From NCBI GenBank assembly GCA_038064415.1, contig JBBTTD010000001.1, forward strand, positions 79,738-126,966: a stretch of 47,229 nt of DNA, in the 5' to 3' direction. The stretch is from Patescibacteria group bacterium. GTDB lineage: Bacteria; Patescibacteriota; Minisyncoccia; Phycocordibacterales; PALSA-1337. The position numbers were made by a program, and so were the translations under genes. The notes under the pieces are model-generated. The model saw only the letters and a program-made list of their open reading frames with translations. It was not told the DNA's origin and did no database searches. This document shows, one piece after another, positions 26,720 to 47,190 of this stretch (position 1 is the first letter of the stretch; each line of letters starts with the position of its first letter).

Positions 26720-29700
26720 TTACCTCCCCTCTCTCTTTTTATTAGTTATAAGAAAGATAAAGATGGCTAAAATAATGAGAACAGTGAATATAATCACCCA
26801 AGTCCATGGAATATCTGATGCTGATACGAATGGGGTGGCGGCGAGAATTCTGTTGTCTGCTGAATTGATATCTTGTTGTACGATTGGGGCAGTGTATTCG
26901 TAGGCGCCTCTTGACCATGTCGTGCGAGTGCGACCAAGCATGTCAACATTGTAAGGTGCCGGTAACAGAGTGCCAGGATTTGTGTTCGTCTTTAGAGTAA
27001 AATCGTTTCCAGTGTAATTGTTGAATATGGATGTTGGAATGTTTAGTTGCTGATTAGCTTCTCCTAAAGAAGCCGAGCCAGAAAAGCCATTGTAATCATG
27101 AGTGGCTCCGGCAATAGTCGGAGTATTGGTATTTATCCATAAGTTGTTGTAAACATAATTGTTAGAGCCACCATTCAATGGAATGCCTGAAGCACCATAA
27201 GTACTATTGGCGAATGTGTTGTTGTAAATTTTGCAGTTTGAGCAATCATTTCTACCAAAACCAATGACACCATTACCGACTTGGTAGTTATAAACAATGT
27301 TGCCATAAATTTGATGTCCATTTGTCCAAGAAATTGCCATAATAGCCGTGCCACCGCCAGCGGGGGTAGAACCCTGACCCATAAACGAGTTTCTAAATTT
27401 GTTGTAACGAATGACGGAATTGTCGCCGTTGTAATATAGGTTTATGTTCTCACCATGATTGGCAGAATTACCCGTAATACGGTCTGACGCGGAATATTCA
27501 ATAACCGGGGCCTCACTATTTCGGACAAACCAATGTTGGGTACCGCCATCACAAAATACTCGCGAAAACACATGGCCGGTGCTATTTATAGTTTCACCAG
27601 AATTATTATCGGTACTTATACACATGCGGCGCACGCTAGTACCTGGCAAGTTTCCAACAATTGCAAGGATGTAAGTATATTTTAATGTCACATTATCTGT
27701 TCTGGCGCCATATTTCGCGATAGAAACTGATGGCCAATCACCATTGCTTCCTACGCTAAATCCATATGCTGTCTTATCAAACCAATCAGATTCATTACGA
27801 GTCTGTCCATCAAACACCCAGTTACTACTGGTGAACTCTAACGCTGTAAACACCGCCTGTCCATCTCCATAAGTGTTATCCCAACCTGTGGCTATTCCAT
27901 GATTTGCGACGGTTGCTTTCTTGATTGTGATAAGTTGTGTACTACTTTCTGGGTCATCAAAGACATATGATCCATAACTTCCATCAGCAACATAATATGT
28001 CGCTCCTCTTTGTAATGTAGCCGTAGCCGGAAGTGTGCTGTATGCGTTTGTCCAATCAGAACCTGAACCATTTCCTGTCGCTCCAGAACGGATGTAGAAA
28101 GTGGTTCCTGCAGGAATAACACTGAAGGTCGCGCTAATAGTATGATTAGCTGTAACATTTGAGAATGTATATGAGGTAACTGCTCCGACCGATACACCGT
28201 CAACTAGAACTCCAGCTACTTGATACCCAGAGTTTGGAGTGATGGTAAAGGTTTGGTTGCTTCCTGAAGTTACTGTAGCTGATGTTGGAGAGATTGAACC
28301 ATTTGCGCCTGTTGATGCAGTGATGGCGTAGGTAACAACAGAACCAACCGTCACTCCCACCGCACCCGAAGTCGTCACAGCTCCACTGTTGTCAGTGGCT
28401 CTAGCGGTTAGTGAATAGGTTCCAGCGCCGACACCTGTCCATGAATAAGAGTAAGGTGAAGTAGTGTCAGTACCTAGAAGTGTAGCTCCATTGTAGAACG
28501 CTACACTTGATATTGTTCCATCAGAGTCAGATGCTGTGGCGTTAATGGTGATTGAAGCCGGGGCTGTGAAAGTCGCTCCATTTACTGGTGAAGAGATAGA
28601 GACTGTAGGAGGGATGTTAGCGACAACTGCGTCATACTTGAATATTGTCTTGGTTACAGTATTAGCCGTAACTGGAACAGAAACTGAACAGAAACTAGAG
28701 GCGCAGGTTAGACCTACGGTAGTATATGAAGGAAGGCTAGTAACTGTACATTCTGTACCTCCTTCTGGATATGTACAGGTGGCATATGATTCAGTGTAAC
28801 CTATTGCATCTGTAGCAGAGACTGTGTGGTTAGCTACTGTGAGTGATGGGAATGTGGCTGGATTAACTGCTGTAGTTGCACCCGCATCTATTTTACTGAC
28901 TACTCCTGCTGGTGCCATAGCTACCGTCAAATCTGTACCGACTAGTTTAGTCATGATTGAACCAGTGGAGGCAGGAGGAGGGATGATATCAGTGTATTCG
29001 TAGGCACCGATATCCCAAACGCTATCTGCACCATGAATGTTTCCTGCCCTATCCACATTATAAGGACTAGATAAACTTCTCCCTACAACATTTGTGGCTC
29101 TTGCAAGTCTATAATCTCCCGCGGCATAATTAGCAAAAACAGAAGTGGTATCAACTCCATTGTTACCGAAGGTTCCCACTCCATTGTATACCACGGCGGA
29201 ATTCACAACCAAGTTGTTGTATGCCTCGTTGCCTGTCCCAACCGATACAGGGAAATGTACTGTTGGAGTATTTCCAACACCATTCACAAAAGTGTTATGA
29301 TGCACCTTTATGTTATAATTTTCCCAACCTGCGGCGATAGCACCATCTCCCATCTGATAATGTTCAAAGATGTTGCCATAAATTTGCGCGCCTTGCGTCC
29401 AAGCAAGAGCGATAACTCCAGTTCCGCCTACTTGTGCCCCCGTATTCTGGTCTCTAAAATGATTGTAACGAACGATGGCATTGGAACCAGGGGTATCACT
29501 ATAAAATAGATTTACGCTTTCAGAGTGATACAACGCCGAACCAGATGTGTCAGACCCCGCGCTGTACTCAACAATTGGACTAACTGTGTTGCGAACAAAA
29601 TAGGGATTGCTACTGCCTTTAATATACATGCGCGAAAATACATAACCAGTATTTCTGGCGGAACTATACGTATCTGTATCTACACCATGTACCCTTACCC

Positions 29701-32700
29701 CTCCATAAGTTGGCACTCCAATTAGAGCATCAATGAACAAATATTTGACAGTAACATTCGGCATGAGGGTTCCACTATTGGTGATTATCATGTGAGTGCC
29801 CCAGTTCCCATTGTTTGCTATTTTGAAACCATACGCATTTCCATCAAACCAGTCTCCCTCGTTTCTATATGAACCATCAAGGACAAAATAACCTCTATTT
29901 ACATTGATTAGTGTGGCAAAAACCGCTTGATTTGTACCATAACTCGCCTGCCATCCAGTACTAGTGCCATGATCTGTGGGAGATGCTTTCTTCATCGTAA
30001 TAACATTCGTGCCAGATTGGGGAGTATTGAATGTCCAAGTTGGATATGATCCACCTGCAACATAGTAAGTTGAACCACTTGTTCCACGATTTAGTGTTGT
30101 CGGAATAGCAGGATAGGCATTGGTCCAATCAGAGCCATTCATTAATCCGGCTCCGGATTGGGTAATATAGTAAGTAGTTCCGGTAACAACAGGACCAACA
30201 GTCACAGTCACACTCGCGCTGGCAGGTGTCGTTCCGACTGCTCCGGTACAAGTAGCAATAAATGTAGTGTCAGCTGTAAGTGCTCCAGAAGAGACATTGG
30301 TACCTGATATACCAGTCTGCCAAGGAGATCCCGCTCTGGTAATGTCACAGGCGGTAGCATTAGTTGAAGTCCATGAGATATTTGAGCTTCCACCAGATGT
30401 AACCGAGGTTGGGTTGGCGGAGATGTCAACGGTTGGCTTGAATGGTGAGGAGTTAAAGGTAGCAGTTACCGTGGTGTTAGCAGTCGGAGTAAAGGTACAT
30501 GATTGATTTGTGGTACAACTTCCAGCATTGCTCCAAATAACAAATGTTGAACCTGAGGCTGGAGTAGCTGTCAGAATAATTGAAGATCCTGGAGTGACAC
30601 TGCAGTTGGCAGGATTGCAAGTGACTGTACCCGTACCTGTGCCTAACTTGTTTACTGTGACGGTGTAGTTAGGAGGAGTTTCTGTCGGAGTAAAGACTAC
30701 ATCACGGAAGTAGTTGGAAGATATATATGTCTGTGTCGGATACGCGTTGACTGGGCCATAGCGACCGTTGCCCCCAACTATTGAACTAAGATTGCCTGAG
30801 GTAATTTTGGTTGCAAAACCTGTGGTGTTGACCACGTAGTATGTAGAACCTGTGTTAACTGTAACCATATACCCTGTATTGGCATTGATAGCAAGTGGAG
30901 TAGCGAGATTTTGTTGTTGCCAACCAGAAGCTGTTTCACCAGTGAATACTACTGAAGCTAATTGAACTCCAGAAGCATTCCAGATGCGACCTGTATGTGT
31001 CCCAGTTTCATGAGAATCCTTCCAAAATCTAATAGCTAGAATATTTCCAGTAACATCACTTTGAAAACGAGTTCCGAGTTCATAATTCACGCCTGCGCCA
31101 TCGGAAAGACCTAACAGAGTAGGAACTTGGGTAGTTAACAATGTCTGACCAACTACGGGCGGAGGTGAGATAAGATCAAAGGTTGCGTTAACAGGTATGA
31201 TACTGGCAGTTGGTGTGAAAGTGCATATAAGATTGGTGGTACAGTTTCCAGCTTTGGACCAACCAGTAAATGTTGAACTTGCAGCCGGAATAGCTGTCAG
31301 AGTGATTGAAGATCCTGGAGTGACACTGCAGTTGGCAGGATTGCAAGTGACTGTACCCGTACCTGTGCCTAGTTTGAATATAGTAACATTATATACAGAT
31401 GGAGAAATAGTGGTAAAAGTTTGATCAGTTGATTGAGAAATAACCCCGTTGGAAGATTTAATTTTGTAGTGATATATAGTATTAGCCGTTAAGCCAGAGA
31501 TTGTCTGAGAATGTGAAGTGACTAAAAGTGAATTAAGAGGTGTTTGGCTACCATAGGCAGAGGTTAGACCATATACTACTTGAGTATCTGCTGGTAAATC
31601 AGTGGTCCAGGAGATCGTGGCACTTGAAGTGGTGATGTTAGAAGTATTAATATTAGAGATTACTGAAGCATTTACGCTAACAGTAGCTGTCACTGACTTG
31701 GAAACTTGTGTGCCGTCTACTCCCGTACAAGTCAGAGTAAAGGTAGTCGTGGTAGTAAGACGTTGGGTTTCATAGTATTTGGTGGAGATTGGGACTGATT
31801 TGGTCGGTCCATCACCAGAGAGAGTACAGGATGAGACTGCCACAGGTAATGTTGTCCAAGCAAGCTCAACTGCTTGCCCTGAAACAGTTGATGAAGGAGA
31901 AACATTGAAGGAATAGATTTGAGGTGGGATGGGGGGTGGTGTAACTACTCCAGTGTAGTTATATAGATCCTGAATCTCTGAATTGGATAATGATCGGTTG
32001 TAGATTCTTACTTCATCCAATACACCTTGGAGGCGATCGGAATTACCGCCGTATTGTCCGAGATAAAGTGGTGAACTGTTAATTGCTGGCGTGATAGTTT
32101 GAGAGACACTGGTATTCAATGCTCCATTTATGTAAAGTCTGAAAGACGAACCATCCCAAGTACAAGCCACATGCGTTAGTTGATTGGCGGTGATTGTTGC
32201 TGTTGAAGTGACAGTATTACTAATCGTGCCATTACCAAATACACAAACAACATAATTATCATTTTTGACCTCCATGGCATAGTTATATGATCGACCGTCA
32301 TCATTAACATTACCCTTGGCAAATACACCATTCCATCGGCTGATAACTGGCAAATTGATCCATGTCGCAATTGTACCAGCCCCAGTTATATCTAGACTGC
32401 CATTGTCCGGAATGGAGATAAAATCGCTTGTCCCATTGAAGTTAAGTCCTCCTGCAATCTTTCCTGTGGTCCAAGTAGCACCATTAACACTGCCCGTATT
32501 ATTGTTGCCTGAAGTGTCATTGGCAATACTGCCTGTACCTTCATCAAGATTGTAGTATCCAACTAGACCACTGGTACTGGGTACAGATACTTGAGCAATC
32601 TGGGTTTGTGGCGAGATGGTAGTCACCTGTTTGGAAATTGTTTGGTATCCAAGGAAAGCTCCAGCGATTAGTAAAAGAACCACCAGAATGCCTAGTTGTT

Positions 32701-32707
32701 GTTTCAT
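26720..32707 (-). CDS. Giant modular surface protein (LamG-like, FN3, Ig/B-repeats, DUF4082-like, two beta-helix-like modules, C-terminal TM)
   Basis: GLVGYYNLDEG..LDEVRIYNRSLS; GLTANTIYHYKI; YELGTRF..NYFRDVVF; NIPPTVSISSP; two modules ending GAYEY. Confidence 0.88.
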   Translation of the reverse strand: MKQQLGILVVLLLIAGAFLGYQTISKQVTTISPQTQIAQVSVPSTSGLVGYYNLDEGTGSIANDTSGNNNTGSVNGATWTTGKIAGGLNFNGTSDFISIPDNGSLDITGAGTIATWINLPVISRWNGVFAKGNVNDDGRSYNYAMEVKNDNYVVCVFGNGTISNTVTSTATITANQLTHVACTWDGSSFRLYINGALNTSVSQTITPAINSSPLYLGQYGGNSDRLQGVLDEVRIYNRSLSNSEIQDLYNYTGVVTPPPIPPQIYSFNVSPSSTVSGQAVELAWTTLPVAVSSCTLSGDGPTKSVPISTKYYETQRLTTTTTFTLTCTGVDGTQVSKSVTATVSVNASVISNINTSNITTSSATISWTTDLPADTQVVYGLTSAYGSQTPLNSLLVTSHSQTISGLTANTIYHYKIKSSNGVISQSTDQTFTTISPSVYNVTIFKLGTGTGTVTCNPANCSVTPGSSITLTAIPAASSTFTGWSKAGNCTTNLICTFTPTASIIPVNATFDLISPPPVVGQTLLTTQVPTLLGLSDGAGVNYELGTRFQSDVTGNILAIRFWKDSHETGTHTGRIWNASGVQLASVVFTGETASGWQQQNLATPLAINANTGYMVTVNTGSTYYVVNTTGFATKITSGNLSSIVGGNGRYGPVNAYPTQTYISSNYFRDVVFTPTETPPNYTVTVNKLGTGTGTVTCNPANCSVTPGSSIILTATPASGSTFVIWSNAGSCTTNQSCTFTPTANTTVTATFNSSPFKPTVDISANPTSVTSGGSSNISWTSTNATACDITRAGSPWQTGISGTNVSSGALTADTTFIATCTGAVGTTPASASVTVTVGPVVTGTTYYITQSGAGLMNGSDWTNAYPAIPTTLNRGTSGSTYYVAGGSYPTWTFNTPQSGTNVITMKKASPTDHGTSTGWQASYGTNQAVFATLINVNRGYFVLDGSYRNEGDWFDGNAYGFKIANNGNWGTHMIITNSGTLMPNVTVKYLFIDALIGVPTYGGVRVHGVDTDTYSSARNTGYVFSRMYIKGSSNPYFVRNTVSPIVEYSAGSDTSGSALYHSESVNLFYSDTPGSNAIVRYNHFRDQNTGAQVGGTGVIALAWTQGAQIYGNIFEHYQMGDGAIAAGWENYNIKVHHNTFVNGVGNTPTVHFPVSVGTGNEAYNNLVVNSAVVYNGVGTFGNNGVDTTSVFANYAAGDYRLARATNVVGRSLSSPYNVDRAGNIHGADSVWDIGAYEYTDIIPPPASTGSIMTKLVGTDLTVAMAPAGVVSKIDAGATTAVNPATFPSLTVANHTVSATDAIGYTESYATCTYPEGGTECTVTSLPSYTTVGLTCASSFCSVSVPVTANTVTKTIFKYDAVVANIPPTVSISSPVNGATFTAPASITINATASDSDGTISSVAFYNGATLLGTDTTSPYSYSWTGVGAGTYSLTARATDNSGAVTTSGAVGVTVGSVVTYAITASTGANGSISPTSATVTSGSNQTFTITPNSGYQVAGVLVDGVSVGAVTSYTFSNVTANHTISATFSVIPAGTTFYIRSGATGNGSGSDWTNAYSTLPATATLQRGATYYVADGSYGSYVFDDPESSTQLITIKKATVANHGIATGWDNTYGDGQAVFTALEFTSSNWVFDGQTRNESDWFDKTAYGFSVGSNGDWPSVSIAKYGARTDNVTLKYTYILAIVGNLPGTSVRRMCISTDNNSGETINSTGHVFSRVFCDGGTQHWFVRNSEAPVIEYSASDRITGNSANHGENINLYYNGDNSVIRYNKFRNSFMGQGSTPAGGGTAIMAISWTNGHQIYGNIVYNYQVGNGVIGFGRNDCSNCKIYNNTFANSTYGASGIPLNGGSNNYVYNNLWINTNTPTIAGATHDYNGFSGSASLGEANQQLNIPTSIFNNYTGNDFTLKTNTNPGTLLPAPYNVDMLGRTRTTWSRGAYEYTAPIVQQDINSADNRILAATPFVSASDIPWTWVIIFTVLIILAIFIFLITNKKREGR
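30579..31371. repeat. 67-bp exact direct repeat pair inside the giant gene
   Basis: 30579-30645 identical to 31305-31371. Confidence 0.9.
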
Positions 32708-43438: not shown

Positions 43439-43514
43439 TCCGCGGTAGCTCAGCCGGTAGAGCGCCTCCCTGTTAAGGAGGATGTCCCAGGTTCGATCCC
43501 TGGCCGCGGAGCCA
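43439..43514 (+). tRNA. tRNA-Asn(GTT)
   Basis: Acceptor TCCGCGG/CCGCGGA, anticodon arm CCTCC-CTGTTAA-GGAGG, TTCGA T-loop, encoded CCA. Confidence 0.97.
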
Positions 43515-43552
43515 AGAAATCTGAAATGACGCGCTCCGCCACTATTTTTTTG

Positions 43553-43611
43553 GGGTCTGGGGAGGAATCCGCGCAGGCTTCGGCTTTCTTTTTTCAAAAA
43601 ATCGGCGGCTA
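43553..43611 (+). repeat. Left 59-bp inverted repeat of the cassette
   Basis: 54/59 match to the reverse complement of 47132-47190. Confidence 0.92.
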
Positions 43612-43629
43612 AATTCATAAATACATTAT

Positions 43630-43660
43630 ATCCTAATTTGGGATTATTCTGCAATAGGAT
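43630..43660 (+). promoter_or_regulatory. Tandem C-box-like operator pair
   Basis: ATCC-N7-GGAT followed by ATTC-N7-GGAT upstream of the XRE gene. Confidence 0.55.
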
Positions 43661-43677
43661 ATATCATAGAAACATAT

Positions 43678-43896
43678 ATGAGCAAGTCGGTTTACTCAAA
43701 AGACTACAAAGAGATAATAGAACGCCTGAAAACGGCGCGTATTGAGGCTGGGCTTGCACAGCAAGATGTTGCAAAGAAACTCGGGAAACCTCAATCGTAT
43801 ATCTCAAAAATTGAATCTGGCGAGAGGAGACTTGATGTCGCAGAAATGAAAAAATTTGCAGAGATATACAAAAAGCCATCCTCATATTTTTTATAA
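43678..43896 (+). CDS. XRE-family HTH regulator (R-M controller-like)
   Basis: RIEAGLAQQDVAKKLGKPQSYISKIESGERR, 3 nt before the REase. Confidence 0.9.
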   Translation: MSKSVYSKDYKEIIERLKTARIEAGLAQQDVAKKLGKPQSYISKIESGERRLDVAEMKKFAEIYKKPSSYFL

Positions 43897-43899
43897 TAT

Positions 43900-44607
43900 A
43901 TGTTAGTACAAAAATTCGACAAATTTTTACAATCGGTTGATCTCAAGGCATATCGTGAAAAATATATGCCGATTAAAATTGTGGAAATGAATCTTCCTAA
44001 AAGCATCCAAGCGATCGAGCTTTTGTATCGTGTCTACTGGGATGAGAAAAAATTTATTGACTTTGAAGAGTTTTATGGAATTTACGAGAAAGAAAAAGGG
44101 CGAGAGCTTCGCAAGTTTCAGAAGAAAAGTGGTATGTGTCCCAGGTGTTTTGCGAAAGGCATAAAAGCTAGAACATATAGAACTTGGGCAGGGCTCATCA
44201 CACAAATTCATGCAGGGTATGTTGCTGGACAAGTGTTCGGACTTGATACAGTAAAAATGTCCGAGCAACTTGATCACCAAGATGCCGACATTCAAGTGCA
44301 TTATAAGGGAATCGTTATTAACTATGATGTGAAAAAGATAGCGAACGCTGGAGTAATGGGACGCGGCCATGTTCCGAAAAGGCCAATTCCTGGAGAAAAG
44401 ATCTCGATTCGTTATGAAGTGCCCAACCTTGATATTGTTTTACATCCAAAAAAGAAAAGGGGGGTTGGATTTAAAAAAGCTTTTATAGATTTTGCAGATA
44501 AATATTTAAAAACCAACATGCTCCATGTGTTTCCAAATGGTTTTGTAGTTTTTACCCCGTATACTTTTGAGCAAAAGAAAAAAGAGATAGATAACTCCCT
44601 AAAATAA
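43900..44607 (+). CDS. TaqI-family type II restriction endonuclease
   Basis: FDKFLQSVDLKAYREKYMPIKIVEMNLP and ARTYRTW resemble TaqI as recalled; D..D-x-K core (DADI..YDVK). Confidence 0.8.
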   Translation: MLVQKFDKFLQSVDLKAYREKYMPIKIVEMNLPKSIQAIELLYRVYWDEKKFIDFEEFYGIYEKEKGRELRKFQKKSGMCPRCFAKGIKARTYRTWAGLITQIHAGYVAGQVFGLDTVKMSEQLDHQDADIQVHYKGIVINYDVKKIANAGVMGRGHVPKRPIPGEKISIRYEVPNLDIVLHPKKKRGVGFKKAFIDFADKYLKTNMLHVFPNGFVVFTPYTFEQKKKEIDNSLK

Positions 44608-46122
44608 TTTAGCAACTGACTTTTTATCGCCCACCATTTTTTCTGCCAGTCTCACATAATCTGGATTAATCTCAAAACCGATATAAGATTGACCTAATTC
44701 TTTTGCCGCCGCACACTCCGAGCCAGTACCAACAAAGGGTACTAATACAACGCCATCTTTTTTTGGCATAGCAGATTTTATCAATTTTTTAGATAGTTCG
44801 AATGGTTTTTGTGTTGGGTGCTTCATTATTTCATGCCCATCATGATTTTTCAGTTGTCGTGGTTCGCAAACAGAATCGCAAGTTTTACACAAAAACCATC
44901 TCTCAATCATTCCGGCTCCACCGGCAAGAGCAGGGATTTTGATAACATCTCTTGGTAAAGCTCCGCCGTCGTGGGCTTTATAAACTGTTTCTAAACCGCT
45001 ACTACTAAATCTCCCTAGCGTTCCTTTTCTTACCTTTCCGGCGGCTCCGTTTAAGAATCCTTCCGTGTATGGCTCCCTAACTTCATCTCTGTTGAAAATC
45101 GGCTTATCTTTCCATGCGCAAATTATAGCTTCGTGGCTTCTTTGCCAGAAATTGAGCGAAGCGACATTTTTGTTTGTATAGTGCCAAATCAACCACCGTT
45201 TTTGTATAGGAATTTCGATTGAAAGATATGCCAAAATTTCACTGAAACCATAAATAAACATTGTCCCATTCGGCTTTAGAATTCTTATACTTTCATTTAT
45301 CCAACTTTTGCACCATTCTACATATTCTCCGAGTTCTCGTTTGTCTGTATTGTTGCCAAAATCTTTTCCGATATTATAGGGCGGATCAATTATGACGACA
45401 TCACAACTTTCGTCAGGAAGTTTCCTTAGTTCTTGAACAGCATCCCCTAAAATTATTTGATTAAGTGGTAGTTTCTTTTCTTTTTTTACTTCTTTTGTTG
45501 TTGTAATTTTTTCTGCCTGCAATTCTTCCTCGTTTTTTATAACATCAATGACAACACCTTGAATTTTAATATCGCGATCTTTTCTAATGATAATTGGCTC
45601 AAAAGTTTTATTTGCGGGTTGCAATCTAATATGTCCTCGTTCTTGATAAAATTTCTTTAGTGTTGCTTCTTGGTTATCTATCAAAGCAACGACGCGCTCT
45701 CCATTCTCCGCCGTGTCTTGTTGCTTTACTAAGACAACATCTCCATCTTGAATATTCTCATCAATCATACTATTTCCACTTACACGCAGAGCATAAAGAT
45801 TGCCAGTACTAGGTAGAATATTTTTGGGAACAGCAATAAATTCGTCTTGGCGAATTACTTCTATTGGTTCACCGGCGGCGATAGTTCCTAAAAACGGAAT
45901 TTTGATCATTGGCTCCTTGGAAGCAACGCTAATAGCACGAGCCTTGTTTTCTGTTTTTCCTAAATAGCCACCCTCTTTGAGTTTTGAAATATGAAAATGA
46001 ATAGTTGAAACAGAAGCGAGCTTAAGTCGTTTTCTAATTTCCTCAAAAGAAGGAGAGTACCCCTTCTTTTGCGAATAGTTTTCTACGAAGTCGAGGACTT
46101 CTTTTTGGCGTTTTGTTAACAT
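44599..46122 (-). CDS. lexA: LexA repressor fused to a beta-class N4/N6 DNA methyltransferase
   Basis: wHTH, AAG cleavage site, GNSM, TLKK; then DPPY..HPTQKP..PFVGTGS. Confidence 0.92.
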   Translation of the reverse strand: MLTKRQKEVLDFVENYSQKKGYSPSFEEIRKRLKLASVSTIHFHISKLKEGGYLGKTENKARAISVASKEPMIKIPFLGTIAAGEPIEVIRQDEFIAVPKNILPSTGNLYALRVSGNSMIDENIQDGDVVLVKQQDTAENGERVVALIDNQEATLKKFYQERGHIRLQPANKTFEPIIIRKDRDIKIQGVVIDVIKNEEELQAEKITTTKEVKKEKKLPLNQIILGDAVQELRKLPDESCDVVIIDPPYNIGKDFGNNTDKRELGEYVEWCKSWINESIRILKPNGTMFIYGFSEILAYLSIEIPIQKRWLIWHYTNKNVASLNFWQRSHEAIICAWKDKPIFNRDEVREPYTEGFLNGAAGKVRKGTLGRFSSSGLETVYKAHDGGALPRDVIKIPALAGGAGMIERWFLCKTCDSVCEPRQLKNHDGHEIMKHPTQKPFELSKKLIKSAMPKKDGVVLVPFVGTGSECAAAKELGQSYIGFEINPDYVRLAEKMVGDKKSVAKLF

Positions 46123-46128
46123 ATAGAC

Positions 46129-46179
46129 TTGACTTGTTTACTACACATCAATTATAATAGAACAAAAGTAGAAAATCAA
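46129..46179. promoter_or_regulatory. Overlapping divergent promoters with an SOS-box-like site
   Basis: Minus: TTGATT-17-TATAAT; plus: TTGACT-18-TATAAT; GAAC-AAAA-GTAG at 46160-46171. Confidence 0.6.
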
Positions 46180-46186
46180 AGTCGAG

Positions 46187-46195
46187 TTATCCACA
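46187..46195 (+). promoter_or_regulatory. Consensus DnaA box
   Basis: TTATCCACA. Confidence 0.45.
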
Positions 46196-46219
46196 TAAGA
46201 GAAGTAGTAAAAATATAAT

Positions 46220-47134
46220 ATGGCATTAATACCCCCAGCATACTTAAATTCAGTTTTATCGATTGGAGTAAGTATAAAAAATGAAAAAAATGAATCAACT
46301 TTTAAATCGCTAGCAACCGGTTTTTTGGTAGGTAAGCCCGTTGGAGAAAAGAATGAGAAAGGACAGCGGTCTTATCGACTATTTGTTGTTACGAATAGAC
46401 ACGTTTTTTACAACGATAAAACTAAGCAGTATGTAAAAGAAGTGCTATTCCGCTTCAATACAACCGAAGGGAAAAGTCATCATTTTAAAGTCAAGTTGCT
46501 TAATTCAGAAAATAAGCCAATTTGGTCAATGCATAGTGATGAAAAAGTTGATTTGGCTGTTCTTCCCATTAACGCCAACGCTATTAGTGAAGCTGGTGTA
46601 GACTTCTATTTCTTCAGAGAAAACGATCTTTTTTATGCCAATAATTTTAAAACCAAGAACATCTCTACGGGAGATGGACTTTTTGTCTTAGGATTTCCAA
46701 TGAGTATAAGCGGTAAGTCAAAAAATTTTGTTATTGTTAGGCAGGGTATCATTGCTCGCGTTGACGAGGAGGTGCTTGAAGATAAGTTTTATTTCATTGA
46801 TGCCTCTGCGTACCCTGGAAATAGTGGTGGACCGGTTATTGTAAAACCAGAAATTGTATCAATACAAGGAATTAACAGTAATAATTCGGCGGGCCTGATT
46901 GGAGTTATTAGCTCCGGGGTAACATATTCTGATGTAGCTGTTAGTCAGCAAACTGGTGAAGCTAAAGTCATATTTACAGAACAAACAGGGTTAGTAAAAG
47001 TTGTGCCAGTTGAACTGATTTACGAAATAATCGACGAAATAACCAAACCGTCCGTAACAAAAGAAGAAGCAGAGGTTAAGGAGGCTGGTTCTGAAGTCAA
47101 AACAGAAGAAACTGTTGAGAATAATAAAACATAG
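46220..47134 (+). CDS. Cytoplasmic trypsin-like serine protease
   Basis: VTNRHV (His), VDLAVL (Asp), PGNSGGP (Ser); no signal peptide; acidic tail. Confidence 0.88.
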   Translation: MALIPPAYLNSVLSIGVSIKNEKNESTFKSLATGFLVGKPVGEKNEKGQRSYRLFVVTNRHVFYNDKTKQYVKEVLFRFNTTEGKSHHFKVKLLNSENKPIWSMHSDEKVDLAVLPINANAISEAGVDFYFFRENDLFYANNFKTKNISTGDGLFVLGFPMSISGKSKNFVIVRQGIIARVDEEVLEDKFYFIDASAYPGNSGGPVIVKPEIVSIQGINSNNSAGLIGVISSGVTYSDVAVSQQTGEAKVIFTEQTGLVKVVPVELIYEIIDEITKPSVTKEEAEVKEAGSEVKTEETVENNKT

Positions 47135-47190
47135 CCGCCGATTTTTTCAAAAAAGAAAGCCAGAGCCCGCACGGATTCCTCCCCAGACCC
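47132..47190 (-). repeat. Right 59-bp inverted repeat of the cassette
   Basis: Begins with the protease TAG stop codon. Confidence 0.92.

Follow-up and report, generated by a model that had tools for sequence, protein, structure and literature searches.

The DNA analyzed here, referred to as the window, is a 47,229-nt stretch of the genome of a Patescibacteria group bacterium (contig JBBTTD010000001.1 of assembly GCA_038064415.1), in which a pair of 59-nt inverted repeats next to a tRNA-Asn gene encloses four genes. These repeats are, with a probability of about 70%, the remains of the terminal inverted arms of a small, integrative, tRNA-linked cassette that belongs to a Patescibacteria-wide family linked to serine recombinases. 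The window cassette appears from its sequence to be a decayed member of this family, interrupted by an insertion sequence (IS), whose restriction-modification (R-M) genes look intact.

The two arms, at 43553-43611 and 47132-47190, are 59 nt long, complementary at 54 of 59 positions (92%) and separated by 3520 nt, and the left arm starts 38 nt after the end of the tRNA. TTTTTTCAAAAAA is present in both. When up to 3 mismatches are allowed, the outer 19-mer of the arm has two matches in the window, and none of 100 dinucleotide shuffles gave two or more, and the window's two are the only full copies of the 59-nt repeat in the 643-kb source genome (G000), a 15-contig assembly from a metagenome. 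An earlier note on this DNA had described a 59-nt inverted repeat (54/59) beside tRNA-Asn enclosing four genes, and coordinates, shuffles and open reading frames (ORFs) all confirmed it; the stop codon of the last gene, a protease, is indeed formed by the first three bases of the right repeat (TAG, 47132-47134). The same note had taken the repeats for recombination or boundary sites or for element ends. For the window copy, this was not supported as proposed: the repeat corresponds to only the inner third of an arm of ~210 nt and its outer edges are a 42-nt deletion on one side and an insertion of an IS110-family element on the other. The proposal that the repeats are cassette boundary sites was supported for the family, given the variable cargo and the filled and empty sites (G168 and G249) described below, but not for the outer edges in the window, which are damage.

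A search of 60 relatives with the left arm repeatedly detected its outer 20 to 35 nt, typically as oppositely oriented pairs 1.5 to 10 kb apart or at contig ends. The stretch conserved in the relatives is the loop of a hairpin, the stem of which differs in sequence between elements yet stays complementary. This loop, which belongs to the second of two hairpins in the arm, is invariant (20 nt, GGAGGGGTNTGGGGAGGAAT), G-rich and mirror-like, carries two GGAGG motifs and is constant across classes of the candidate phyla radiation (CPR). Allowing one mismatch, it was found in 56 of 301 sampled genomes of the order, representing 47 of 190 genera, mostly as (+)...(-) pairs. A scan for the exact loop in one genome per GTDB species gave at least 120 stretches, nearly all of them from Patescibacteria and spread over several classes. 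The matches outside the CPR (Alistipes/Tidjanibacter, Bdellovibrionales and others) were singles, and about 4 chance hits are estimated for 19 fixed bases. A viral donor was considered and rejected: the exact loop was present on 11 IMG/VR contigs, all from one high-GC phage lineage, where it lay inside a 142-aa ORF with no flanking stem and was judged unrelated. Rfam returned no family for the hairpin in nine loci at E ≤ 0.1, only tRNAs and sub-threshold noise, and no description of the arm family was found in the literature searched, supplementary files being outside that search.

The stem of the second hairpin was found to co-vary. Among 32 distinct arms, the inner five positions were paired in 93.8% of cases compared with 64.5% for shuffled sequences (0 of 500); four of the five pairs showed double changes. 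For all 12 stem pairs, the corresponding value was 86.5%, as against 38 to 53% when the partner was slid and 55% when the 3′ halves were shuffled (0 of 1,000). The two arms of a pair were usually alike, the number of mismatches in 25 pairs from relatives being 0 in 16, 1 or 2 in 6 and at least 4 in 3. Outside the hairpin, the arm continues as side A (1 to 364 nt in relatives), while the hairpin together with side B, the part on the inside, measures 30 to 82 nt; intact arms across the family are 130 to 430 nt long. Some pairs have only the hairpin and side B in common (side A of 1 and 16 nt), and hybrid arms were detected in two loci, namely the right arm of L066 (3 of 12 stem pairs) and L073 (6 of 12).

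The closest subfamily to the window consists of L056, L057, L059, L063 and L070. A MAFFT alignment of these loci with the window arms gave the following order for an intact arm of ~210 nt, from the outermost part to the inner edge:

Part 1 (outermost): TTGGCTCC, the reverse complement of the tRNA-Asn 3′ end GGAGCCAA
Part 2: first GC hairpin, CGCCCCGCC ... GGCGGGGCG
Part 3: second hairpin, with the invariant loop
Part 4: T-rich stretch with a small dyad (side B, rich in T and A)
Part 5 (inner edge): ...GGCGGCTA, beyond which every element diverges

The inner edge is identical to the base in five cargoes that differ. A T-rich tract follows each hairpin in one direction; a simple scan, limited to loops of at most 8 nt and thus blind to these hairpins, detected no canonical terminator within the arms. 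The T6-N-A6 dyad to which the earlier note drew attention is a feature of the closest subfamily and is not conserved across the wider family.

Both window arms align with the five loci of this subfamily from the half-loop to the inner edge GGCGGCTA. On the basis of this arm homology and of an HTH_3 (helix-turn-helix, HTH) gene as the first gene, the window arms can be assigned to the arm-bounded cassette family. The features that make up the ends of the window copy are as follows:

43439-43514, + strand: tRNA-Asn(GTT), from ARAGORN and alignment, on the attachment-side flank
43516-43552, + strand: remnant of side A of the left arm (its inner 37 nt), from alignment with intact arms, previously regarded as a spacer
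43553-43611, + strand: inner part of the left arm, comprising the 3′ half-loop, the 3′ stem half and side B ending in GGCGGCTA
47132-47190, - strand: inner part of the right arm, comprising side B, the 3′ stem half and the 3′ half-loop, cut in the loop
47191-47229, + strand: left end of an IS110-family IS (~1.4 kb), of which the first 39 nt are present before the contig stops

In the left arm, the outer ~75 nt of side A are gone and a further 42 nt have been deleted at ~43552/43553, between two CTGGGG repeats of which one lies in each hairpin loop. This deletion takes away the 5′ halves of the hairpin structures. The 5′ stem half is missing from both window arms, through the deletion on the left and the IS insertion on the right, so that neither has a complete hairpin, and in a folding comparison intact arms formed two hairpins while the window arms did not. 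As the 5′ parts have been removed from both arms, the 59-nt repeat represents what remains, that is, half-loop, 3′ stem and side B. With its arm ends broken, the window copy is therefore most likely immobile and is probably a fossil of the family. The earlier description of a recombinase-free cassette moved in trans is plausible for the family, most copies of which have no recombinase between the arms.

Evidence for insertion came from another member of the family. In G168 (L062), gyrB is followed by a tRNA-Tyr ending in ...GCACCA, a terminator hairpin, TGGTGC and an arm with a 309-nt side A; downstream are an HTH gene, Mrr, three more genes and an inverted arm ending in ...GCACCA, immediately before the alr start codon. 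In the congener G249, the tRNA-Tyr ending in ...GCACCA is followed directly by alr. The comparison of this filled site with the empty one shows that the arm-bounded unit of ~4.8 kb is an insertion at a tRNA 3′ end. The six tRNA bases GCACCA form a direct repeat at the far end of the G168 unit and are inverted at its near end, and no recombinase is present in its flanks. In this one pair of genomes, a member of the family was thus seen to have entered a tRNA 3′ end and to be accompanied by a short direct repeat. Alignment indicated that arms of the tRNA-Asn type follow the same outer-end logic, and a tRNA-Asn also borders related cassettes in two other genera (L056 and L057).

The tRNA-Asn locus was compared in congeners of the source genome. 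The genes fmt, hpf and tRNA-Asn were syntenic upstream, while all downstream content differed in eight of eight loci; the earlier note had held that invariant cargo at this locus would speak against its proposal, and no such invariance was found. The arm loop was present at none of the eight congeneric loci. The tRNA-Asn of G020 is followed, after 0.7 kb, by a homologue of the serine recombinase that the source genome carries on contig C7. The tRNA-Asn site is a hot spot of integration. Directly repeated copies of the tRNA-Asn 3′ end were seen 150 to 185 nt downstream in G004 (L047, contig C37) and G009 (L050, contig C5), and at L217 (G288:C12) the tRNA 3′ end likewise recurs in direct orientation; at all three loci the repeat comes after a short insertion, probably left by a previous integration at the tRNA.

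A large serine recombinase (Resolvase, Recombinase and Zn_ribbon_recom domains) was encoded within ~1 kb of an arm in 8 of 26 arm pairs, and another ORF with a Resolvase domain lay near an arm in a ninth (9 of 26). In all three loci of the group L033 to L035, the recombinase gene is situated between two outward-facing arms, and in L074 it stands beside a single arm. The linkage is oriented: the recombinase and an HTH gene diverge from one arm in each of the five loci with both genes, the recombinase starting 120 to 720 nt from the arm, and the 3′ end of the recombinase gene overlaps a tRNA on the opposite strand in four of six loci with a complete gene. Elements are arranged in tandem at their arm ends in the loci with a recombinase between arms. 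This type of recombinase was found in 181 of 301 genomes of the order, with a hand count of ~45 of 56 loop-bearing genomes and ~136 of 245 others, in which related genomes are not independent. In L034 (3659-4189, genome G017), an IS200-type (Y1_Tnp) transposase gene adjoins the recombinase between the outward-facing arms.

Genome-wide searches of G000 for the Resolvase, Recombinase and Phage_integrase families gave no match in the window; DDE-transposase families were outside these searches and the other window ORFs were not scanned. The only Phage_integrase-family gene of the genome is on contig C6, and its single serine recombinase begins at C7:9977, is 53% identical to the enzyme of L035 and is cut at residue 299 by the contig end. 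As regards integrases, the earlier statement that none was seen in the window agrees with these searches; a serine recombinase is encoded elsewhere in the genome, and an IS110 transposase gene lies just past the last base of the window, belonging to the IS and not to the cassette.

The window and contig C1 both stop 39 nt beyond the right arm. Contig C9 of the same genome begins with the reverse complement of the last 42 nt of C1 and departs from it at the arm edge. The last 359 nt of C1 are matched at 99.7% by a public metagenome contig (L213), which continues with ~270 nt of non-coding DNA and an ORF of 355 aa with the Pfam domains DEDD_Tnp_IS110 (3.5e-25) and Transposase_20 (2.9e-22). Its far end is identical to the last 55 nt of contigs C3 and C10, and the right end of the IS is ...GGATCTTCC. 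Both transposase domains and the site- and orientation-specific insertion place the element from 47191 onward in the IS110 family. The left-end junctions (C1, C9 and both arms of L212) are four out of four distinct junctions at the same point of the arm loop and in the same orientation. As these junctions coincide in both respects, the element targets the invariant loop; at least two copies are present in G000, where they are unassembled. One of three right-end flanks, that of C10, is the complementary half (5′ stem and side A) of another arm class, and those of C3 and L213 are not arm-like.

Among 41 genomes of the genus, only G004 also has the IS-end sequence, as 20 to 22 nt between two inverted half-loops. 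A comparison for guide-to-target complementarity gave a longest shared word of 7 nt, and 155 of 500 shuffles were equally good. In L212, a 2676-nt metagenome contig, a class-1 cassette carries the IS110 left end in the loops of both arms, in inverted orientation, an arrangement resembling a composite transposon. In L213, the sequence past the right end of the IS (CCAGAATCACC...) has no counterpart in G000; it may reflect a mis-join at the multi-copy IS and was not used for linkage.

The favored mechanism is that the serine recombinase would integrate units at tRNA 3′ ends through their tRNA-like outer ends, and that in the circular form the two arms together would constitute one long palindromic attachment region. 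Units with no recombinase of their own would be moved in trans or would be relics of decay and tandem accretion. The loop may be a hot spot for recombination or breakage, on account of the hybrid arms, the pairs sharing only the hairpin and side B, and the IS insertions; hybrid arms would also result if IS copies located in different loops recombined homologously and the IS was then lost precisely.

Several observations weigh against this interpretation. A recombinase was absent from the flanks examined of 17 of the 26 pairs, and the arm-bearing genomes G275, G292 and G302 had no recombinase match among the 150 of 359 rows listed. Attachment (att) sites of serine integrases are normally no longer than 50 bp and leave hybrid attL and attR sites, not perfect inverted repeats of 130 to 430 nt. 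No tRNA-derived direct repeat of 13 nt or more was detected at the far ends of four recombinase-bearing loci, and in two loci (L071 and G000:C7) the arm abuts the 5′ end of the tRNA rather than the 3′ end. Only one clean pair of filled and empty sites was obtained, comparisons of G163 with G046, G244 and G309 and of G129 with G288 giving synteny breaks. The tRNA-Asn end is not directly repeated at the window copy, and there was no empty site among the congeneric loci compared.

A role for the loop is provided by a more far-reaching, and rather doubtful, interpretation, namely that the arms are modules of a Patescibacteria-wide cassette exchange, an analogue of integrons in function, run by large serine recombinases. 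The loop would then be the site of crossover or synapsis at which cargo led by an HTH gene and bounded by side B is swapped between tRNA-anchored side A "docks," and the IS110-family element would have adopted the loop as its landing site. The basis for this interpretation is provided by the hybrid arms (the L066 right arm and L073), the pairs with side A of 1 and 16 nt and the sharp edge across five cargoes. It is also unlikely that the arms act mainly as bidirectional transcription insulators and portable homology, with cargo swapped by RecA-dependent recombination after DNA uptake and the recombinase integrating only the larger island. Arms of 130 to 430 nt with no mismatches would suffice for homologous exchange, the T-rich tract lies to one side of each hairpin, the stop codon of the last cargo gene abuts the far arm in all four subfamily cassettes inspected, and arms have been retained in the 17 pairs with no nearby recombinase. 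The negative terminator scan counts against insulation, although loops of more than 8 nt escape such a scan, and this explanation does not account for the invariant 20-nt loop, the tRNA-like outer ends, the 6-bp direct repeat in G168 or the tight, oriented recombinase linkage (five of five loci).

Inverted repeats and a serine recombinase are also the geometry of an invertible, phase-variable segment, in which the recombinase would flip the cassette between its arms and thereby switch R-M expression. A joint between 43555 and 47191 on opposite strands, found in contigs of two of four public metagenome runs (X2 and X8), with its short side capped at 39 nt by the window end, fits an inverted cassette but fits equally well an IS left end beside a left-type arm in another copy or strain, as is seen at both arms of L212, and is not counted as evidence of inversion. 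Orientation is fixed in all loci that could be scored, the HTH end being next to the recombinase in five of five loci and next to tRNA-Asn in three of three, and the cassette has its own promoter-like sites; inversion is improbable. A non-autonomous DDE transposon, such as a miniature inverted-repeat transposable element (MITE), a mobile insertion cassette (MIC) or a Tn3-derived inverted-repeat miniature element (TIME), with terminal inverted repeats (TIRs) recognized by a transposase encoded elsewhere, is more improbable still. Inverted terminal repeats around passenger genes with no transposase between them would suit such an element, and the repeat starts with GGGGTCTG, as do Tn3-family TIRs. 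Tn3-family elements terminate in repeats of ~38 bp, duplicate 5 bp of the target and have autonomous relatives with a Tn3-type DDE transposase. In intact arms, however, GGGGTCTG is internal, within a hairpin loop, and the identification as a Tn3-like TIR was dropped. The only duplication seen is 6 bp and equal to the tRNA 3′ end, the arms are 3 to 10 times the typical length of a TIR, and no DDE transposase was found beside the 26 pairs other than the arm-inserted IS110 and the IS200-type gene in L034. An assembly artefact, that is, a chimeric or fold-back join, would be suspected from the position of the right arm 39 nt from the contig end of a 15-contig metagenome assembly, but the chance of this is negligible: the two arms differ at 5 positions, independent contigs from four runs in two studies cover the cassette, L213 reproduces the protease, arm and IS junction at 99.7%, and the architecture recurs in dozens of genomes, some of them in a single contig. 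The interpretation as the decayed arms of an integrative, tRNA-linked cassette is the one adopted in what follows.

The genes of the cassette and the associated promoter-like site are as follows:

43638-43667, + strand: promoter-like site TTGGGA-18-TATCAT ahead of the HTH gene, by consensus match only
43678-43896, + strand: XRE-type HTH protein of 72 aa, resembling C proteins (Pfam HTH_3, 1.4e-15)
43900-44607, + strand: TaqI-family restriction endonuclease of 235 aa (Pfam RE_TaqI, 3.1e-29)
44599-46122, - strand: fusion of LexA_DNA_bind, Peptidase_S24 and N6_N4_Mtase domains, 507 aa (N6_N4_Mtase, 1.1e-37)
46220-47134, + strand: trypsin-like serine protease of 304 aa (Trypsin_2), the variable fourth gene

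The ORFs of all four genes are intact. An endonuclease, a methyltransferase and a small HTH regulator together correspond to a predicted Type II R-M system with a controller. The stretch between the arm and the HTH gene is kept in L056, L063 and L070, as determined by alignment. Overlapping divergent promoter-like sites (11/12 and 10/12 matches) were seen at 46129-46179, between the methylase fusion and the fourth gene, and are kept in L070 despite a different fourth gene; they are a possible operator for the LexA domain. Elsewhere in the window, an ORF of 1995 aa was noted at 26720-32707 on the - strand.

Across the family, 19 of 26 pairs, including the window, start inside one arm with an HTH_3 gene of 66 to 73 aa. 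The cargo otherwise varies. R-M types include DpnII/Dam, TdeIII, AlwI, a C5-methylase with a separate S24 protein and an EcoRI-type methylase; other cargoes are Mrr and GmrSD/HNH nucleases, AbiE-like and AAA proteins, GDSL lipases, NUDIX proteins, ABC transporters, a D-Ala-D-Ala ligase and many unknowns. The same cassette as in the window was found in G244 (L070), from a different family of the order, where genes for the HTH protein, the TaqI-like enzyme and the LexA-methylase follow one another as in the window, between arms that are intact and mutually identical. The DNA is 80% identical to the window over 2663 nt, and the proteins are 94% (HTH), 56% (TaqI-like endonuclease) and 93% (LexA-methylase) identical, while the fourth gene encodes a Schlafen/AlbA_2 protein instead of a protease. 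In all four subfamily cassettes inspected (the window, L070, L057 and L059), the arm edge supplies the TAG of the last gene.

Two features of this cargo were noted in addition. The TaqI-like endonuclease (43900-44607 in the window, L070:5229-5924) is only 56% identical between near-identical neighbors and appears to be a mosaic or fast-evolving module. The LexA-S24-methyltransferase fusion (44599-46122, - strand, in the window; L070:3714-5237) is 93% identical between two families of the order, and L063 (1206-3010) has a separate 210-aa S24 protein adjoining a C5-methylase, which suggests that control of R-M may be tied to a LexA-like cleavage signal.

A second cassette was found in G000 (C7:7433-9666, equivalent to L054:934-3167). 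It has a full arm with the hairpin at C7:7668, adjoining a tRNA-Thr(CGT), and an EamA-type transporter gene followed by an inverted copy that comprises side A alone and lies 310 nt upstream of the recombinase. Partial decay therefore affects both cassettes of G000. The start of contig C12, read backwards, is the outer side A of the window's subfamily and overlaps the window at 43516-43526; contigs of two public runs join C12-type sequence to the window at 43516, and in G009 a C12 homologue is collinear, ~9 kb downstream of tRNA-Asn. The simplest layout that can be inferred starts with tRNA-Asn and the decayed left arm, followed by the cassette, the inner right arm, the IS, the outer right arm and C12, in which case a short unique piece beside the IS would have been lost from the assembly.

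The public data consisted of assembled contigs only, from four runs in two groundwater metagenome studies, and contigs from both studies contained the window cassette. Other cargoes were joined exactly at the inner edge of the arms, as loose ends at 47132 (two of four runs) and at 43591-43594 (four of four). The 3- to 10-fold-higher depths over the methylase gene and arms are sums over contigs of other organisms and do not represent a copy number. Contig ends of G000 fell into two further families that share 19 to 35 21-mers, one comprising the start of C2, the ends of C4 and C6 and the starts of C7 and C15 and the other comprising the starts of C3 and C8 and the ends of C12 and C15; they mark one or more additional multi-copy repeats, different from the IS110 element, that were left unassembled. 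The last 40 nt of C11 are part of a run of at least 40 G, most likely a sequencing or assembly artefact.

Patescibacteria have tiny genomes with few recognized mobile elements, and the turnover of their defense genes is poorly understood. The arms define, by sequence, a compact cassette family that occurs in several CPR classes and, within one order, in about one-fifth of the genomes sampled. The invariant 20-nt loop can serve as a search handle for accessory-gene hot spots in CPR bins, where the arms also break assemblies. If the recombinases do act on the arms, these would be new natural site-specific recombination systems with long, structured sites, and the IS110-family element and the arm loop would be a natural pair of IS and target for work on RNA-guided recombinases. 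For G000, the local map has been corrected, the tRNA-Asn island consisting of one decayed cassette into which a multi-copy IS, a cause of the assembly's fragmentation, has inserted.

In integrons, every cassette has a single, directly oriented attC site, and the integrase, IntI, is a tyrosine recombinase that is accompanied by an attI site. The cassettes described here resemble integron cassettes in having promoter-poor, variable cargo, a conserved site structure with a variable stem and a recombinase next to the array, but differ in having two inverted arms per cassette, an invariant loop sequence and a neighboring serine recombinase. The attributes of an integron were not found in these loci: the arms form inverted pairs, the neighboring enzymes carry Resolvase and Recombinase domains, and the lone Phage_integrase gene of G000 is on C6.

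For the window, the closest published pattern is the R-M unit described by Furuta, Abe and Kobayashi (2010; PMC2853133), in which R-M genes but no mobility gene lie between long inverted repeats that match imperfectly (60/65 in X. oryzae, for example), and which was proposed by those authors to be a non-autonomous element moved in trans. The window likewise has a compact Type II R-M set between imperfect inverted repeats of tens of base pairs. In that account, however, the units have 8-bp target duplications unrelated to tRNAs and repeats unique to each unit, while the window family is phylum-wide, with a conserved hairpin, tRNA-like ends, non-R-M cargo and recombinase linkage. Insertion of IS110/IS1111 elements into repeats of other elements has precedents in the reference list of PMC11208160, namely IS4321/IS5075 in Tn21-family TIRs, IS1383 in IS1384 repeats and elements with repetitive extragenic palindromic (REP) targets. 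The window IS resembles these in occupying one fixed point and orientation in the loops of four arms and differs from the cases listed there in that its target is the hairpin loop of a CPR cassette arm.

For the family as a whole, parallels are found among elements bounded by att sites and among those that target tRNA genes. Cis-mobilizable elements (CIMEs) retain att ends, located at the 3′ end of a target gene, but lack integration genes, having lost them or never possessed them (Guedon et al., 2017; PMC5704250), and their accretion is comparable to the tandem arrangement in the loci with a recombinase between arms. CIMEs have direct attL/attR repeats and a conjugative origin, while the cassettes here have long inverted arms, no conjugation genes and a size of 1.5 to 10 kb. 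The tycheposons of Prochlorococcus (bioRxiv 10.1101/2020.12.28.424599), 910 of 937 of which use tyrosine recombinases, a minority carrying large serine recombinases, and many of which carry replication modules, are similarly cargo elements at a few tRNA genes of streamlined genomes that remodel small islands; the accessible part of that report makes no mention of long inverted arms or a conserved hairpin. The closest concepts for the cassette family are recombinase-less att-bounded elements with accretion, together with tRNA-targeting cargo elements.

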